From Candidatus Saccharimonadota bacterium (GTDB taxonomy: Bacteria > Pseudomonadota > Alphaproteobacteria > Rickettsiales > Anaplasmataceae): DNA of 32,000 nt. Within the stretch, counting starts at the first letter, position 1, and the number at the start of each line of letters is the position of its first letter. The notes under the pieces are model-generated. The model was not told the DNA's origin. It made no database searches and saw only the letters and a list, made by a program, of their open reading frames with translations. The translations under genes were made by a program, and so were the position numbers. This document shows, piece by piece, positions 8,646 to 17,112 of the stretch. The stretch covers positions 450,001 to 482,000 of the forward strand of contig NZ_CP046579.1 in NCBI RefSeq assembly GCF_013365475.1, read 5' to 3'.

Positions 8646-10136
8646 ATGTCTTCTAAACAAAAATTTTTATGCACTAATTTCTCCAATCAATCAGCAACTT
8701 TTTCAGAAGGACAGCATTATAATAGTGATACATACAACGAGAAAAGCGGCTCTTGTAAAGATGTCAAAAATAGCTGTGATTTGAATGATAGCAGTGCTCA
8801 AGTCAATAATGGTAAACAAATTTTGTTAGATGATCTACCACCACAAAAGATAGTTAAAGAGCTGAATAGATTTATAATTGGACAAAATGATGCAAAACGT
8901 GCTGTTGCTATTGCACTCAGGAACCGTTGGCGTCGTAACAAAGTTCCTGTCCCTTTGCGTGATGAAATCATACCTAAAAATATACTGATGATTGGTCATA
9001 CAGGTGTTGGTAAAACTGAAATGGCTCGTCGCCTAGCGAAGCTTGCTGGTGCACCGTTTATAAAAGTTGAAGCGACGAAATTTACTGAAATAGGGTATGT
9101 TGGGCGTGATGTTGACTCAATAATACGTGATTTAGTTGATGCAGCAATAGTTTTAGTCAAAGAAAAGGCACGTAAAGCTTTGGCTAAAAAAGCTTTAGAT
9201 TTAGCTGAGAAGATAATAGTTAATTCCATGGTTGGTGAAGATGCAACTGAAGAAAATAAAGAGATTTTTAGAAAAAGATTGAGAAATAAAGAACTTGAAG
9301 ATGGAGAAGTTTCCATAGATGTAAAAGAAAGTAAGAGCGTATTACCAGCTTTTGATATACCAGGTGTACCAGGTGGGCAAGTTGGTATAGTAAATATAAC
9401 AGAATTAATGGGTAAAATGTTTAATGGTGGTAAAAAAACAAAAACTATTACAGTTAAAGTGAAAGAGGCACGTAAAATATTGATCAATGAAGAAAGTGAA
9501 AGGTTAATAGATGAAGATAAGATAATCAAAGAGGCTCTTGATCTTGTTAGTAATGAAGGTATAGTGTTTTTAGATGAAATAGACAAGATAGCAGCATGTA
9601 CAGAAGTAAAAGGTGAAGTCAATAGAGAAGGGGTACAACGTGATTTATTACCACTACTTGAAGGGACAACCGTTTCAACTAAATATGGGCATGTAAAAAC
9701 AGATTACATATTATTTATTGCATCTGGTGCTTTTCATCAATCTAAACCATCTGATCTCTTACCGGAATTACAGGGCAGATTGCCAATTAGAGTGGAACTT
9801 AAGGCACTAACTCAGAAGGATCTAATAAGAATACTAAAGGAACCAGAATCTAGCTTGTTGAAACAATATATAGCTCTGATGAAGACGGAGAACGTAACGC
9901 TTGAGTTTACTGATGATGGCATTGAGACTATAGCTGAAATAGCGTTTACAGTTAATAGGCAAGTAGAAAATATAGGTGCAAGAAGGCTACATACTGTCAT
10001 GGAGAAGCTTTTGGATGAGATAAGTTTTACCTCCTCTGAAAAAAGTGGTGAAAAATTTGTCATAAACAGCGAGTATGTGAAAGATAGGCTTGGATCAATT
10101 TCAAAGCAACTTGATTTATCTAAGTTTATACTTTAG
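8646..10136 (+). CDS. hslU: ATP-dependent protease ATPase subunit HslU, with about 60-aa N-terminal extension
   Basis: 496-aa ORF. '[21 protein letters not shown]', Walker A '[15 protein letters not shown]', Walker B '[11 protein letters not shown]', '[13 protein letters not shown]'. The ATG lies 1 nt after the hslV stop. Confidence 0.93.
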
Positions 10137-11707
10137 TAGAATATAATTATATATTAATATGTGATATAAGTATTTTAGATGATAGAAATTTTTCAAGATG
10201 TCTAATATAAAAGAAAAAGCTAAAGCAAAATTTTCTGAGTGTATTAAAGATAATACATAAAAGTTGCTGTAATGACAGTAATCACTTCAGTGAAAATTAT
10301 GCTGGATGATATCATAGGTAAAAATAACAAAACTAAAAATTTTTTAATGTCAGTTAATGATAGTAGAGAAGTTATAACTAGTTATACTACAATAATATGG
10401 GAATAGTAAAAAAGTTAGGTGTTATAGCTAAGTTAATTCTTCTTCACAAACACATAAATATGTGTGATAGAAAATGATACAGCGTTAACCCAAGCGCTGT
10501 AGCGATTACGCTACTTGAATAATAAAGTAATAAATTAAGTAGTAAAGATTTAGGAGAAAACGCAAATATGAAATAAAATATAGCGAGAGATTAAGTTTTA
10601 TCAATACTATCAAAGTACAAGAACAGCAGAGAGAACTAATGACTGAGAAATTAGCTTCACCTAATTACAGTTAAATACTGTAATCAAACTATAAAATAAC
10701 GAGAATAGTTTATATTACCTGTATAGGTGCTTTGTATTCTTAAGTAAAATTTTAGACTTTTTCTCATTCTTATAATCCTAAAGCTTGTTACAATAGTTGA
10801 CCTGCTTGCCCAAATTTCATAATTAAATCTAATAGTTCGTTTATATTTCTTAGTTGAGTTATGTCCCTCATGCTTTTATGAGCCTGTACATCTCTTTTGA
10901 GACTTTTTATCTACTTTTTCTTTAATATTACTGCTCCTTGCAATATAGCACTAGCTTTATATGTATTGTAAATCTGTGTATTTTCATACCATTCATATCA
11001 GATGACTAGATCTCTAACACTTTTTAGTTGTATATAATACTTGTGCTGCAAGATCTATAAAATATAAAGCTATTAAACTTTTGCATTTTAATATTTTCTA
11101 TCAGACTTAATTCCCCATTTTGATTCCTTGCTTTGGTTCTATTTTTTTGATTATAAGGGTAAATGATTTACTCTATCAGTTAGTCTTGATAAGCTTTTAT
11201 TACATGTTATTCTACTTATTCTTTATTTGAAGTGATTTTTTCATTAGTGAAATAAAGTTTTTTAACACTATTATAGGACGTGCTGAAACTTTTAAATTTT
11301 CCCTTAATAGGTAATTTCTGCTACTTGAAAGGGTTTAATAGAGGGAGGGTCTTTTGTTATTGTTAGTCTCCTTAACGGGAGGGGCATTCTACTTTTGATA
11401 TGTAAAGACTTCTTTATGATTTCTGTACTGAAATTTGATAATATCACTTCATCGCTTGATGCTCATACTATATTAAAATTAATGAGGTATCTCTCTGACT
11501 ATTTTAGATGTTCTGTTGCTTGTATTAACTTCAGGTCTCACTTCGTTTATTTTCAATTTGCTAGTAATACAACTTAGATACAAATGATTAAATATGACTA
11601 TACATGAATGCTGCTTTAGGAAGGCCTCTGTAGCGCTCAAATATAAAAAACAAAGACTTGATTTTATGCCTAAATAATAGATTATTGAGTACCATATAAG
11701 CATTCAG
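10137..11707. other. 1.57-kb ORF-free stretch, presumed decayed DNA of unknown origin
   Basis: No ORF of 60 aa or more except at its 3' edge. All six frames are full of stops. No tRNA-like or known ncRNA motif recognised. Confidence 0.5.
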
Positions 11708-13081
11708 ATGCAAGAAAAAATTTTCACAATTGTTGATGGTTATGGTTTTCTTTTCAGGGCTTATTATGTTTTGCATAATTTAATCACTACAACTGGCATC
11801 CCAATAGGGGCTGTATATGGCTTTCTTAATATGATTCTAAAGTATATTACATGTTCAGATTACTTAGTTATAGCACTTGACTCTGGGAAGAAGAATTTTA
11901 GGCACGATTTATATTATAAGTACAAAGCAAACAGAATAACACCCCATAAAGATTTAATCACGCAATTTGCAATACTGAAGGAAGCAATAGAAGCCTTTAA
12001 TCTTAGTTACGAAGAGGTTGAAGGCTATGAAGCAGATGATATAATTGCAACACTAGTTGCAAAATATGCTAACCATAAAGGCTTCAAAGTAGTAGTAGTT
12101 TCATCAGATAAAGATTTGCTTCAGCTGTTGAGTTACAATATTCTTATATTTGATCCTATTAAAAATATATATATAAATGAAAAACAAGTAATAGAAAAGT
12201 TTGGTGTAAATTCAAGTAAACTTCTTGATTTATTTTCTCTAATTGGTGATGTACCTGATAACATTCCTGGTGTTCCAGGAATAGGTCCAAAAACCGCGAT
12301 TAAACTTCTAGATGAGTTTAATTCGGTAGATAATATTATGGAAAATATTAATAACATCAAGCAAACAAGGATTCGTAATATTTTCACTGAACATAAAGAA
12401 AAAGCATTGCTTTCAAAAAAACTTTTTTCTCTATGTGAAAAAGTAAATCTTCAGTGTGATATTGCAAAATATGAGGTCTATTCTCCAAACACAAGGGAAT
12501 TGCTACCCTTTTTGAAGAAGTATGAATTTCATTCTTTAGTATACAAAATAGAGAAGCTTTTTCCACAAAGTAAACCTGGAATAAAAGATAAAATAGAATA
12601 TGGAAGCGAAAGATTAGAAAAATTTTTAGAGTGTTGTAGATATAATGGTAAAATTGCAATCTACTGTCATTTTGAAAATAATGTATTAAACATGGTTTCC
12701 TTATCTTATAGTGAGGATAGTATTTTTTATATAAACCAAAATTGCCTGCAAGATGCATTGGTTATAGTAAATTCAACTCTGCTTTTAAGAGGAGTACTTA
12801 AAATAATATGCAACATTAGGGAAATAAGAAAAATATTTCCTGTAATAGAAAAAGTGCTAAGCTCAGTTGACGATTTGATGATAATGTCATATAGTCTTGA
12901 TAGAGAGAAGCATGATCATAGTATCTTGAGCATAGTTATTCATAACTTAAGTGGAAGTATAAAAACTTTTTCAGCAAAAACATTAGTAGTGATCTATAAA
13001 AAGCTAACGCAAAGACTATTTCAGGAAAAGCTTTTTACAGTCTATGAGCGTTTTGATAAGCTGCTTATGAATGATGTTTAA
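11708..13081 (+). CDS. polA: DNA polymerase I N-terminal fragment: 5'-3' exonuclease (FEN-like) domain plus vestigial 3'-5' exo-like region; polymerase domain missing from the ORF
   Basis: 457-aa ORF. 5'-nuclease motifs are intact: 'IVDGYGFLFRAYY', 'ALDSGKKNFRHDLYYKYKANR', 'EGYEADDIIATL', 'VSSDKDLLQL', H3TH 'LIGDVPDNIPGVPGIGPKTA'. The ORF ends at TAA 13079-13081, about where the polymerase (thumb) domain should begin. Confidence 0.85.
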   Translation: MQEKIFTIVDGYGFLFRAYYVLHNLITTTGIPIGAVYGFLNMILKYITCSDYLVIALDSGKKNFRHDLYYKYKANRITPHKDLITQFAILKEAIEAFNLSYEEVEGYEADDIIATLVAKYANHKGFKVVVVSSDKDLLQLLSYNILIFDPIKNIYINEKQVIEKFGVNSSKLLDLFSLIGDVPDNIPGVPGIGPKTAIKLLDEFNSVDNIMENINNIKQTRIRNIFTEHKEKALLSKKLFSLCEKVNLQCDIAKYEVYSPNTRELLPFLKKYEFHSLVYKIEKLFPQSKPGIKDKIEYGSERLEKFLECCRYNGKIAIYCHFENNVLNMVSLSYSEDSIFYINQNCLQDALVIVNSTLLLRGVLKIICNIREIRKIFPVIEKVLSSVDDLMIMSYSLDREKHDHSILSIVIHNLSGSIKTFSAKTLVVIYKKLTQRLFQEKLFTVYERFDKLLMNDV

Positions 13082-14140
13082 CTAGAGAGAAAGTGTAGTA
13101 TTGCTAAATGTTCAAGGTGATAGAAATTCTTAGTAAATTTTAGTAGTTACTCTTCTCACTATATTTGGAAGTGATATATCAAGCATCAGTTGGAGGTTTA
13201 ATATTTGCTTTACTAAAAAATCAAGTTGAGTTTTGTTTTTAGGACATGTCCATTCCAGAAAAAAGAAAGGTCAAAATTTGGACTTATACATAGACTCTGA
13301 AGTTTTGGAATGATTTAGAATGTAAGTGGCTAAAATTATAAGTAATATTTTAGATTGTTAACACTCAAATAAACTAGATGGTACTTGCACTGGCGCGTTT
13401 AATAGATGGTTAATCCTCTCATAGAGTAAAGTGCATGTAGGTTTTGATAGTTTCAGTAGAAATCCCTCAGTCCTAGTAACTCTCTAATCTAGATGGTATT
13501 CCTATAAGGAGAGCGGTGAAATCTGACTGGATAAGTATTCATTGGAGCGAAAAGGTGATAGTTGTGTGTTTTATCAATTGTTCGAATAGGATTGAGACTT
13601 TTGGTACACGGTGCAGCATCTTTAAGATATTTAGATTACTAATGTCACTATAAAGCAAGTTTTCGAGTACAAGAAGAAGGTACAGATAAACAAATAAGAT
13701 AAAAAATTCCAATAGTTGTCTTAGCCATTATATAGCGTAACCTGTCCTGCTTTAGAAGCAGTTTTAAAGCTACCTGCTTAAGAGGCTTCTGAATATATTA
13801 GTCATTATTTCTTCTTTTATCTAGGATAAAGATCTATATGAATGGAGGGTAGGTACTTATTTATTGCAAGTAAAGAAGCAAAATAATTCTCCAGGTTCGT
13901 AGTAAACTACTAATTGAGTTATAGGCAATAATGCACAAGAAGTAGTAAAACACATGAAATGTATGGTAAGAAATATAGTGAAAATTTTTGTACTATTTAA
14001 GATGAAGGTCAAATCAACTGTAATTGAGGTTTTAATCTTAGTTATGATTTAAGTGATAAAATTTTGAGGAAAAGATTATTTGAACTGATATGAAAAATAA
14101 GATATAATTTAAATATATATGAGTACACGGGTCAGTATCG
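13082..14140 (+). pseudogene. polA: Decayed DNA polymerase I polymerase domain (frameshifts and stops)
   Basis: Hand translation finds collinear Pol I motif relics in different frames. 13230-13310: 'VLFLGHVHSRKKKGQNLDLYIDSEVLE*' (cf. ILFEKLGLP..KKTKTG.YST..EVLEEL). 13483-13509: 'SNLDGIPIR' (cf. PNLQNIPIR). 13579-13599: 'CSNRIET' (cf. motif A DYSQIELR). 13725-13811: 'PLYSVTCPALEAVLKLPA*EASEYISHYF' (cf. motif B region GxxYGxSxFGLAxxLxIxxxEAxxYIxxYF). Possibly 14002-14031: 'MKVKSTVIEV' (cf. motif C QVHDE). The 3' boundary is approximate. Confidence 0.8.
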
Positions 14141-14147
14141 AATCTCT

Positions 14148-14660
14148 ATGCGTGAGGAATTTGAGCCTTTTAAAGTTTTAAGTAAAGATAGTGAAGTAAT
14201 CCCCGAAGGGAAGTATAAGGTAATATATTATACCTTTATGCAATTGATAAAAAATAAAGTGCTCTCTGAAGAGATAAAAGAAGAGGATAAGGTTGCATTT
14301 ACTTTCATGCTAGATCAAGGCAAGTTTGTATTCAAAAATGCTAAATTAAAATATATAAAATTACTAAGTGAAGAAAGTTTTCTTCAGTTTTTGCTTTCTA
14401 TACTTGAGAGAGTTAAGAAAGGGAATTTAGCAAGCAAAGAAAATTTAAAGAATGGTGAAGTAGAGAAAATAATTGATGAATGCATGTCTGATATATGCAA
14501 CACGGAAGCTAAAGATTCTTTTGTGAAGCTTATTGGGTGGCTATTTGGGATCAACATAGATCCTAATTTTTTTTTGGTTCTTTCAAGTGTGGATTGTTAT
14601 TTCCTAATAAAGGCAAAAAAGAAAATGATGGATTACTACTTGGTGATGAAGGGATGGTAA
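14148..14660 (+). CDS. Hypothetical protein, possibly the 5' part of a frameshifted gene
   Basis: 170-aa K/E-rich ORF with no recognisable family. A T9 tract at 14567-14575 lies where the next ORF's frame opens. Confidence 0.35.
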   Translation: MREEFEPFKVLSKDSEVIPEGKYKVIYYTFMQLIKNKVLSEEIKEEDKVAFTFMLDQGKFVFKNAKLKYIKLLSEESFLQFLLSILERVKKGNLASKENLKNGEVEKIIDECMSDICNTEAKDSFVKLIGWLFGINIDPNFFLVLSSVDCYFLIKAKKKMMDYYLVMKGW

Positions 14661-15049
14661 TGATATTCTTATGCAAATTTTTATCCCATATTATCCTTTT
14701 TGCTTTTTCAACACTGGTATTTAGCATTAGCCCAGTTATGTCAACAATCAATTGTATTCTTCTTATATTATCCATATCAGTAGCAATAAAGAGCCTCTTT
14801 TCAAATGATAAAAAAGATACCTTATATAATCCTAATTCGTTAGATAAGATGAAATGGAGCGATAAAATTAGTGATGGTATTAGTAAAATTTTAGGAACAG
14901 AAATTGAAAAGGACAAATTGCCTGTCAAAACAAGAGAAAACAGTAAGCTATTTACTATGTTTGATAAAGTTAAGGCCAACCAAAATAAATCCTTTCAGTG
15001 GAAAGAAGATGATCGTAGAAAAGTAGTAGGAAATCAGCATGGTTTATAG
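14594..15049 (+). CDS. Hypothetical membrane protein, possibly the 3' part of a frameshifted gene
   Basis: 151-aa ORF with a TTG start in the track; its frame is open from 14567. Hydrophobic segments followed by a K/D/E-rich tail. The composition is more protein-like than the antisense ORF 14563-14979. Overlaps the tldD 3' end by 6 nt. Confidence 0.3.
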   Translation: MLFPNKGKKENDGLLLGDEGMVMIFLCKFLSHIILFAFSTLVFSISPVMSTINCILLILSISVAIKSLFSNDKKDTLYNPNSLDKMKWSDKISDGISKILGTEIEKDKLPVKTRENSKLFTMFDKVKANQNKSFQWKEDDRRKVVGNQHGL

Positions 15050-16471
15050 CTCAGTTCCCCCTACTGTGATTGAATCGATCTTGAGTGTTGGTTGACCAAC
15101 GCCAACTGGTACATCTTGCCCATTTTTTGAACACGTGCCAATGCCAGGATCTAGCTTTAAATCGTTGCCAATCATAGATATTTTCTTCAGTACTGTTGGA
15201 CCATCACCGATTAGTGTCACACCTTTGACAGGCTGTGTAACTTTACCATTTTCTATTAAATAGGCTTCTGAGGATGAAAAGATAAATTTCCCTGAAGTTA
15301 TATCAACTTGCCCGCCACTAAAATTTACTGCATATAGACCTTTTCTTACACTAGATATTATTTCTTCTGGTGTATACTTGCCTGGTAACATATAGGTATT
15401 TGTCATGCGTGGCATAGTAATTTTTTTATAGCTTTCCCTTCTGCCATTACCAGTTGTGTTGACACCCATGAGTTTAGCGTTCATATAATCCTGCATATAT
15501 CCCTTTAAAATTCCATCTTCTATCAATACGTTATAACTAGCAGTTGTGCCTTCATCATCTATACTAATAGAACCACGTAAGTTAGGTAAAGTTCCATCAT
15601 CAACTACTGTAATGGCGTCAGATGCTACTTGCTTGCCAATAGAATCTGAAAATGCTGAAACTCCTTTACGATTAAAATCACCTTCAAGCCCATGACCTAC
15701 AGCTTCATGTAACAAAACCCCAGGCCAACCTGAACCTAGGACAACCGTCATCTCTCCAGCTAGAGTTGGAACTGCTTCAAGGTTTACTAATGCTTGTTCT
15801 AGCGCTTGGTTTGCAACTCCTTTCCATTTTTTTTCAGAGATAAATTTACTATAAAAGTTCCTTCCTCCATGCCCAGCAAAACCCCTTTCAGTACGGCCAT
15901 TTTTCTCTACAATAACTATCACATTAAAACAAACCAAGGGCCTGATGTCACTTAATCTGTAATCGTCTCTTATTATTTGTATAACTTGCCACTCTCCACT
16001 CAGAGTTACCTTTACTTGCTTTACACAAGTATTCTTAGACCTTACATACTCATTAACTTCATTAATCAGCTTTATTTTTGAGGTCAGATCTATTTCATTT
16101 ATTGGGTTAATCCTATGATATAGATTCTTTGTCTCATCTTTTAATCTTGTGAAATTTGCTTTGTTTAAAGATGTTGAACTTCTCACTATAGAAGCAGCGT
16201 TACTAATTTCTTTTTCACTGATCTCAGAAGAGCATATAAAGGACGTATTACTCTCGCAAAAAGACCTCAGGCCAAAACCTTTTCTGGTATTCAAATTCAT
16301 ATGCTTCAGTATGTTATCATTAAAAATCAAAGACTCTGATTGGCAAAACTCTAAGAATAGCTCACCACCATCACTATTGCTCAGAGCATTACTGACTATT
16401 TTATGTATATTACTAATATTCACATCATTTTGAGCAAAAAATATTTGATCTATGTCTATGTTATCTGGCAT
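15044..16471 (-). CDS. tldD: Metalloprotease TldD
   Basis: 475-aa ORF. 'HEAVGHGLEGDFNRKG' zinc motif and C-terminal 'GxC.KxGQ..PVG.G.P...I..ITVGG' typical of the TldD/PmbA family. Confidence 0.9.
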   Translation of the reverse strand: MPDNIDIDQIFFAQNDVNISNIHKIVSNALSNSDGGELFLEFCQSESLIFNDNILKHMNLNTRKGFGLRSFCESNTSFICSSEISEKEISNAASIVRSSTSLNKANFTRLKDETKNLYHRINPINEIDLTSKIKLINEVNEYVRSKNTCVKQVKVTLSGEWQVIQIIRDDYRLSDIRPLVCFNVIVIVEKNGRTERGFAGHGGRNFYSKFISEKKWKGVANQALEQALVNLEAVPTLAGEMTVVLGSGWPGVLLHEAVGHGLEGDFNRKGVSAFSDSIGKQVASDAITVVDDGTLPNLRGSISIDDEGTTASYNVLIEDGILKGYMQDYMNAKLMGVNTTGNGRRESYKKITMPRMTNTYMLPGKYTPEEIISSVRKGLYAVNFSGGQVDITSGKFIFSSSEAYLIENGKVTQPVKGVTLIGDGPTVLKKISMIGNDLKLDPGIGTCSKNGQDVPVGVGQPTLKIDSITVGGTEL

Positions 16472-16531: not shown

Positions 16532-16616
16532 AGCCAGGGTGGCGAAATTGGTATACGCGCTAGCTTCAGGTGCTAGTAACTTTTCAAGTTATGGAAGTTC
16601 AAATCTTCTCTCTGGC
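16532..16616 (+). tRNA. tRNA-Leu (anticodon CAG), type II with long variable arm
   Basis: Hand-folded. Acceptor GCCAGGG/CTCTGGC (one G-T pair), anticodon stem CTAGC/GCTAG, loop TTCAGGT, variable arm AACTT-TTC-AAGTT, T-loop TTCAAAT, discriminator A. CCA is not encoded. Confidence 0.85.
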
Positions 16617-17112
16617 ACTCTTAATTTTTTATTTTTAAGCAAAGTAACTTTGTAACGTATATGCTTGCTAAGTTTGAATTTATGAGGGAAGAGAGGCTTT
16701 CTTACAGGAAAACATGAACTCGCTAAGGATGCTAGGTTACATATAGCTTAATATGGTAATTCATCTTAGATTACCTAACTTTTTATGGAATACAAGTTAT
16801 GTAGTGCCTAAGTAGTAAGAACAATTGAAGCAGACTATATTGTATAATACTTGATCTCAAATCTATAGTAAAATAATAAAAAAGCAGATAGAAATTAGTA
16901 GCATACCTATTATACAAATGTGCTGTTGAAGTAATAGGTAACTAAGAAGGGAAGGGATCAATGTTTATATTTAGTATGACAATTTTACAAAAAAATAGTA
17001 AAACTCTAAGTTATTAAAAGTACCAGTAACTATCATTGCTATAGCTAGAAAATTTTTATTTAGTAATTTATTTATAAAGGTATTATTTTTATCTATAGTA
17101 AAACAAGTTAGA

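Follow-up and report, generated by a model that had tools for sequence, protein, structure and literature searches.

Gene content and identity of the locus

The window analysed here is a stretch of 32,000 nucleotides from the genome of wCtub, the Wolbachia endosymbiont of the filarial worm Cruorifilaria tuberocauda, which belongs to supergroup J. It contains polA, the gene for DNA polymerase I (Pol I), in a form in which only the N-terminal part is an open reading frame (ORF). This ORF encodes 457 amino acids (aa) and is followed by about 1 kb of polymerase-domain debris (Table 1). The wCtub genome (CP046579, 863,988 bp) was built from PacBio circular consensus sequencing (CCS) reads, and in 2020 no Wolbachia genomes smaller than those of wCtub and wDcau were known (PMC8116671).

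The ORF lies exactly where an earlier note, made from the letters of the sequence, had placed it. Its product is a 100% match to an nr protein of the C. tuberocauda Wolbachia endosymbiont and is labeled '5'-3' exonuclease H3TH domain-containing protein' by NCBI. The gene order hslV-hslU-polA-hypothetical-tldD is common to wCtub and other Wolbachia, and in wCtub the next gene lies only ~217 bp closer to the start of polA than it does at intact loci. The comparison set consisted of 17 intact Wolbachia polA loci, obtained by a scan of contigs with a chimeric full-length PolA query; the genomes of wDcau, wDimm and further strains were located via their TldD proteins. The 17 intact proteins are 64-77% identical to aa 1-454 of the ORF, with no stop or frameshift in this part. 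The locus is the syntenic polA orthologue of wCtub, and its polymerase domain is dead.

It is very improbable that a second intact polA, or another family-A polymerase, lies elsewhere in wCtub and that the present locus is its decaying paralogue. By position, the locus is orthologous to the polA that other Wolbachia have in single copy, and in the KEGG table of the genome authors K02335 appears once for wCtub and once for wDcau (PMC8116671). No other PolA-like sequence was found in the 32-kb window, and a duplication would be unlikely in an 864-kb genome under reduction.

The break point and the polymerase relic

The ORF ends at the boundary of the polymerase domain, as the earlier note had proposed: in wDimm, whose orthologue is intact, PF00476 (DNA_pol_A) begins at aa 470, and the reading frame of wCtub is shifted at aa ~454, 15 residues short of the polymerase domain. 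The cause of the shift is a 2-bp deletion, mapped by DNA alignment with wDcau, wDimm, wLsig, wLbra, wStri and the comparison locus L017. The ORF ends three codons beyond it, at a TAA that the deletion brought in frame. The +1 frame past the deletion reads MMFN*RESVVLLNVQ (the asterisk is a stop), which matches VIFDMEKNGILLNIQ of the intact proteins. Pfam finds no PF00476 match in the 457-aa ORF.

The ~1 kb downstream of the ORF is a collinear relic of the polymerase domain. A profile hidden Markov model (HMM) built from the 17 intact Wolbachia PolA proteins was run on three-frame translations of 13060-14160. The profile matches the forward strand only, and its pieces are in order: positions 456-581 fall on 13071-13448 (E 7e-13) and positions 653-721 on 13632-13832 (E 2e-6), with weak pieces extending to 14016. 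The best-frame score of the relic is 49.8 bits, and none of 200 dinucleotide shuffles scores above 1.6 bits. Frameshift-aware alignments with five intact proteins place 16-21 stops and 9-13 frameshifts in the relic, so the frame-hopping, dead polymerase domain described in the earlier note is confirmed. As far as 13840, the amino-acid identity to the intact proteins is 0.34-0.41, and from there on it falls to ~0.24-0.34. Nucleotide identities at codon positions 1, 2 and 3 are ~.55,.61 and.49 in the relic, as against ~.85,.92 and.68 in the live part. The excess conservation of positions 1 and 2 has thus been lost, and with it the signature of coding constraint. Open stretches in the forward frames of 13082-14147 reach 57 codons at most.

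Four relic peptides had been pointed out earlier (DSEVLE, SNLDGIPIR, CSNRIET and the peptide from the motif B region). Their translations, coordinates and frames are all exact, and in frameshift-aware alignment they fall on the expected PolA motifs. For motif A, a third frame reads IVRIGLRLLVH, which is a better match to IELRLLAH than CSNRIET is. No HDE triad (motif C) is recognisable in the wCtub relic, and the relic has no open frame carrying the motifs of a functional family-A DNA polymerase (A, DYSQIELR; B, RRxAKxxNFGxxYG; C, HDE).

A sequencing or assembly artefact, with one continuous ORF of ~850 aa as the true gene, is effectively refuted. The genome is a PacBio CCS assembly, and such reads may hold homopolymer indels. 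However, two Logan assemblies of other sequencing runs match the window at 100% identity, SRR10898807 over 9351-15667 and SRR10898805 over 11076-15667. The relic also differs from the intact genes at ~45% of its nucleotides and has its many stops, a state that correction of indels could not restore.

Table 1. Features of the wCtub polA locus, with positions in the window.
Feature	Position	Strand	Remarks
Live ORF, N-terminal part of PolA	11708..13081	+	457 aa; TAA at 13079-13081
5'-nuclease, N-terminal (resolvase-like) domain	11726..12205	+	aa 7-166; PF02739 (5_3_exonuc_N)
5'-nuclease, H3TH/SAM-fold domain	12209..12490	+	aa 168-261; PF01367; includes GVPGIGPKTA
Middle domain, vestigial 3'-5'-exonuclease-like	12494..13066	+	aa 263-453; catalytic DEDDy residues replaced
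Site of 2-bp deletion	13070..13073	+	intact ATGAAAGTGAT, wCtub ATGAATGAT; lost between 13071/13072
Polymerase (palm/fingers/thumb) relic	13082..14147	+	collinear with intact PolA aa ~456-end; ~16% shorter than intact
TAG TAG on former CAG CAG (Gln-Gln of 'DKFQQ')	13141..13146	+	DNA alignment with intact genes
Relic SNLDGIPIR of SNPNLQNIPIR, stretch preceding motif A	13483..13509	+	
Motif A relic	13577..13612	+	DYSQIELRLLAH to ..IVRIGLRLLVHG; catalytic Asp gone; partly manual three-frame reading
Relic of motif B end and next helix	13725..13811	+	IIYGISPFGLAKRLGI..AEYINYYF to PLYSVTCPALEAVLKLPA*EASEYISHYF (E 2e-6)
Faint C-terminal relics, motif C region included	13874..14016	+	weak HMM/tblastn pieces, collinear; alone not significant

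The retained 5'-nuclease

The N-terminal part of the ORF has the domains and motifs of a flap endonuclease (FEN) type 5'-nuclease. The motifs VDGYGF, ALDSG, EGYEADD, SSDKDLLQL and GVPGIGPKTA, listed in the earlier note, are found at aa 9, 56, 105, 132 and 188, and the last of these fits the GxPGxG pattern. PF02739 is matched over profile positions 3-164 of 164 (E 1e-48, 165.6 bits, cut-off 34.3), and PF01367 (5_3_exonuc) is matched with E 7e-27 (94.2 bits, cut-off 40). All the metal-binding carboxylates are kept, as judged from a phmmer alignment with Taq polymerase (1TAQ/1BGX): the equivalents of Taq D18, D67, E117, D119, D120, D142 and D144, and the GD..DN pair. They fall among the nearly invariant columns of the multiple alignment, and the GD..DN..PGV motif of the H3TH domain is kept as well.

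The AlphaFold2 model of the 457-aa protein has a mean predicted local distance difference test (pLDDT) score of 89.8; its two domains are connected by a flexible linker (aa 288-295). In Foldseek searches the top matches of the N-terminal domain are ExoIX, FenA, plastid exonuclease 1 and T5 FEN. The whole model aligns to Taq and Mycobacterium smegmatis Pol I, with ~465 columns to 1TAQ. The ratio of nonsynonymous to synonymous substitution rates (dN/dS) of the nuclease against wDcau is 0.215. By these features the active site of a FEN-type 5'-nuclease is intact, and the protein is presumably expressed and active as a nuclease. Substitution rates and the open frame together indicate that the 457-aa ORF is maintained by purifying selection.

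One might suppose instead that the whole gene is a pseudogene and that the 457-aa ORF is functionless, being merely the part not yet hit. The flanks of the ORF are decaying: the hypothetical gene downstream is split by a frameshift, and the 1.57 kb upstream hold only faint relics. A pseudogene screen of louse Wolbachia also listed their truncated polA genes as candidates (PMC9903615). Against this stand 454 consecutive codons without any stop or frameshift, beside a relic in which ~6% of codons (about one in 17) are stops; at the relic rate, the probability of such an open stretch by chance is ~1e-5 or lower. Measured against wDcau, dN/dS is 0.21-0.26, and wDcau has independently kept both of these domains open. 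All catalytic carboxylates are kept, and the nuclease part is retained in three or four reduced Wolbachia lineages. We consider a wholly dead gene very improbable.

The middle domain

The earlier note was right that the 5'-nuclease has been kept, but not that it is all that has been kept: ~190 further residues, which make up the middle domain, are also open and under purifying selection. Pfam returns no match for aa 263-453, even at E values up to 1. Beyond the linker, the domain is folded confidently by AlphaFold2. Its sequence lacks the catalytic residues of the 3'-5'-exonuclease motifs Exo I (DxE) and Exo III (Yx3D), having AIYCHF where the alphaproteobacterial consensus is AIDxET, and FSAKTL where it is YAxxDA. 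The same degenerate proofreading site is common to all Wolbachia PolA proteins examined, the intact ones included, so the middle domain, an exonuclease fold of the Taq type, was already vestigial before the truncation. Its dN/dS against wDcau is 0.261. Its divergence relative to that of the nuclease domain gives a ratio of 1.54, which is inside the range for intact genes (1.31-1.79). These values indicate that the middle domain is kept open under purifying selection. The sequence QEKLF at aa 439-443 was considered as a QxxLF beta-clamp motif and rejected; it aligns with a conserved hydrophobic helix of all Pol I proteins.

A tentative extension is that Pol I of supergroup J is a distinct two-domain protein, made up of a FEN nuclease and a dead 3'-5'-exonuclease-like domain, and that it has been selected as such since before the split of wCtub and wDcau, as part of a wider shedding of Pol I in Wolbachia. 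We consider this a possibility with the odds somewhat against it. If it were true, the middle domain would have a function independent of the polymerase, for example the binding of DNA junctions or tethering to a replisome partner.

The sister strain wDcau and the age of the loss

PolA is intact in wDimm (supergroup C; 861 aa). In wDcau (supergroup J; CP046580), the ORF of 477 aa comprises the nuclease and the middle domain without the polymerase, and only 508 bp separate it from the next gene. Homology to the PolA profile ends at position 459 in wDcau and at 456 in wCtub. The TGA stop of wDcau lies on the codon for the first Gln of 'DKFQQ' in intact genes, and the same codon is TAG in wCtub, which suggests that the ancestor of supergroup J acquired a CAG-to-TAG nonsense mutation at the shared Gln codon. 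Beyond the shared stop codon the alignment of the wCtub relic with the wDcau remnant is ambiguous, and shared indels are unreadable there.

At what used to be codon positions 1 and 2, the relic has decayed by ~0.5 substitutions per site, as against a wCtub-wDcau distance of ~0.37 at four-fold sites; these are back-of-envelope figures, derived from identities with a rough correction for multiple hits, in which misalignment inflates the relic value and the four-fold sites are partly saturated. The relic alignment was optimised on the amino-acid score, which biases identity upward, and misaligned stretches bias it downward; the dating was used only against the view that the loss is recent. That view, 'comparatively recent' in the words of the earlier note, does not hold. 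The relic is only ~35-40% identical to intact PolA and carries 16-21 stops, and the deeply diverged sister strain wDcau is cut at the same boundary with most of the relic deleted. Judged by this decay, the loss of the polymerase is old, whether it happened once or independently in the two strains, and it probably predates the split of wCtub and wDcau.

The alternative is that the loss is recent and specific to wCtub, wDcau having lost its polymerase domain independently. The actual stops do differ, since wCtub has the 2-bp deletion and ends at codon 458, whereas wDcau runs in frame to codon 478. wCtub has also kept ~84% of the length of the domain and wDcau just its 508 bp, and the distance between the two J strains is almost that of either from the intact wDimm, which would leave only a short shared J stem for a common event. 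On the other hand, the homology of both ORFs ends within ~3 profile positions, a stop lies on the same former Gln codon in both strains, and the relic has, by our own rough estimate, decayed further than the two strains have diverged. Even if the losses were independent, the one in wCtub would be old. We regard a recent, separate loss as the less likely of the two histories, though one to be taken seriously.

The explanation that best fits the locus as a whole is an old loss of the polymerase domain, with a FEN-type nuclease and a vestigial domain retained under selection in the role of a flap nuclease. We put its probability at roughly four in five. Some points weigh against it. The shared stop is no more than suggestive of a single loss, with a chance probability of ~0.06-0.1; ~6% of relic codons are stops. 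The distance between wCtub and wDcau nearly equals that of each from wDimm, as noted. Finally, the middle domain that supergroup J keeps was discarded by louse Wolbachia.

The KEGG supplementary table of the genome paper has no entry for ftsZ, ftsA or ftsW in wCtub or wDcau (PMC8116671). The same table lists 11 of 12 homologous-recombination genes in wCtub and 3 of 12 in wDcau (PMC8116671), so the J genomes differ sharply in repair capacity, though both are without the Pol I polymerase.

Reduction of PolA in other Wolbachia

Two Wolbachia of lice have reached the same state. wMeur1 (733,850 bp) has a nuclease-only ORF of 292 aa in the same gene neighbourhood, followed by a remnant of 778 bp (CP085695.1; locus L022, 5001-6656). 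In wMmer, a nuclease ORF of 313 aa is followed by highly similar, frame-broken polymerase fragments, one of which is a 127-aa ORF with PF00476 (locus L024, 5001-7572). These strains (supergroup F, PMC9903615) share genus, locus and outcome with wCtub. They differ in that they are cut ~150 residues earlier, so that the middle domain is gone too. The events are independent, with other break points and in another supergroup; wMeur1 has deleted the polymerase part, and in wMmer its fragmentation is fresh. The nuclease-only reduction has arisen at least twice independently in Wolbachia.

Other strains show lesser changes. The polA of wMpe, from Mansonella perstans (JACZHU010000005.1; locus L028, 9544-12104, minus strand), matches the profile at 1-621 and 604-856 in two frames. 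No gene is called there, and the two pieces are separated by a single frameshift near motif A, which is either a very recent pseudogene mutation or a draft-assembly error. The intact polA genes of wLsig (locus L009) and of the metagenome-assembled genome (MAG) C61_2 (locus L011) have HNE in motif C instead of the catalytic HDE, a change at the equivalent of Escherichia coli D882. In motif B, wLsig in addition reads INFE instead of INFG; C61_2 reads SISIKSK instead of NIPIRSE. The polymerases of both may be dead despite their intact ORFs.

It seems from these sequences that loss or weakening of the polymerase recurs in host-dependent Wolbachia and that the nuclease persists. The two-domain reading of supergroup J Pol I would also fit here, as the louse strains, wMpe and the motif C changes of wLsig and the MAG appear to form one trend with it, in which obligate mutualists shed the Pol I polymerase. 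If this trend is true, Pol III would be left as the only DNA polymerase of obligate-mutualist Wolbachia. The strains also form a decay series of one gene: wDimm has it intact, in wMmer and probably wMpe the break is fresh, in wCtub the gene is eroded, and wDcau and wMeur1 have deleted it. Such a series could be useful for calibrating pseudogene decay in Wolbachia.

On one 9.9-kb contig (WNGO01005776.1; locus L029, 1666-4245), a Wolbachia-type polA is present as two adjacent ORFs, one of 438 aa (nuclease and middle domain) and one of 418 aa (polymerase). The split lies close to the same domain boundary, beside transposase fragments. A nuclear insert, a gene that is really split or an assembly error would each account for it.

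Comparison with known systems

The nuclease-only pattern is well known from aphid symbionts, and the one variation in wCtub is that the middle domain was kept. According to a 2019 survey, 23 of 81 endosymbionts have just the 5'-nuclease part of PolA (PMC6403173). Among them were 16 of 18 Buchnera strains, which bears out the precedent cited in the earlier note. The survey cites Shigenobu 2000 for the Buchnera polA case. All eight Wolbachia genomes examined there had a full-length PolA. The wCtub locus falls with the survey's 'PolA.1-only' class in having a polA orthologue with the 5'-nuclease and without the polymerase domain, and its bearer is likewise a host-restricted symbiont with a reduced genome. 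Buchnera and wCtub are alike in being obligate, reduced intracellular symbionts in which the FEN part of Pol I is kept as an ORF and the polymerase domain is lost, and in both the pattern points to the nuclease, not the polymerase, as the indispensable activity of Pol I. They differ in the product, which in Buchnera is ~290 aa of nuclease only, whereas the 457 aa of wCtub and the 477 aa of wDcau include the vestigial domain, kept under selection. The survey mentions no polymerase relic for Buchnera, while wCtub still has ~1 kb of recognisable debris, and the wCtub lineage is an alphaproteobacterial one, Wolbachia.

Stand-alone FENs, such as E. coli Xni/ExoIX, Bacillus subtilis FenA (YpcP) and M. 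smegmatis FenA, have the same fold and the same metal-binding motifs as the wCtub nuclease, and are its best structural matches after plastid exonuclease 1; they also turn up as sequence hits. Their presumed role is the removal of RNA primers and flaps (PMC10191290), the role also proposed here for wCtub. They are, however, separate paralogues beside a full Pol I, whereas the wCtub protein is a truncated Pol I orthologue with an extra C-terminal domain. The Taq-type Pol I, with a 5'-nuclease, an inactive 3'-5'-exonuclease-like domain and a polymerase, corresponds to the ancestral architecture of Wolbachia PolA; its third domain, the polymerase, is what the wCtub protein is without.

We found no paper that describes a nuclease-only Pol I in Wolbachia. 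The wCtub and wDcau genome paper counts polA simply as 'present', in supplementary tables only, and its main text has no mention of polymerase, polA, exonuclease or pseudogene (PMC8116671). In the louse Wolbachia paper polA appears in supplementary tables only, and the main text mentions neither polA, polymerase I nor exonuclease (PMC9903615).

Proposed course and role

The first step of the decay may have been the change of CAG to TAG, a nonsense mutation that lies 11 residues inside the polymerase domain. A later 2-bp deletion in wCtub would have shifted the stop to codon 458, and the ~1 kb downstream would have drifted neutrally and is not yet deleted. The 457-aa protein is most likely the flap endonuclease or 5'-3' exonuclease of the cell. 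It would clear away RNA primers and displaced flaps where Okazaki fragments meet and in repair patches. DnaE, the alpha subunit of Pol III, would then take over the filling of gaps, and LigA would seal the nick. The genome authors list dnaE as present in wCtub (PMC8116671). The 5'-3' exonuclease is found in 99.8% of bacterial genomes, and the Pol I polymerase is dispensable when the nuclease is present (PMC12926913, 2026). Loss of polA leaves B. subtilis near wild type, and DnaE of this species is able, together with a FEN, to carry out Okazaki-fragment repair (PMC13082043).

With wCtub, Wolbachia joins the bacteria that live without a Pol I polymerase and yet keep the flap nuclease. The case supports the 5'-nuclease as the indispensable activity of Pol I and implies that Pol III (DnaE) alone would fill Okazaki and repair gaps in these symbionts. 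In filarial Wolbachia, which are drug targets, a lone conserved FEN without a polymerase partner is therefore a candidate essential enzyme.

Sequences around polA

The gap between hslU and polA (10137-11707, 1.57 kb) has no ORF of at least 100 aa. Its minus strand has weak collinear tblastx matches to a gene for a 396-aa hypothetical protein (locus L004, 2642-3832), which sits upstream of polA in other Wolbachia, and the gap is probably a second eroded gene relic. In wDcau and wDimm the same gap is also 1.6-2 kb long without a called gene.

Between polA and tldD lies a conserved hypothetical gene, which wDcau, wDimm, wMpe and locus L029 have as one ORF of 301-362 aa. The wCtub copy (14148-15049) is split into two overlapping ORFs, 14148-14660 and 14594-15049. 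The split falls at a run of nine T (14567-14575), and is either another pseudogene mutation or a slippage-prone homopolymer; two independent Logan assemblies have the identical sequence here.

Rfam and tRNA scans of the window find no RNA gene in the polymerase relic and two tRNAs only, tRNA-Leu(CAG) at 16533-16618 and tRNA-Gln(TTG) at 28652-28725.

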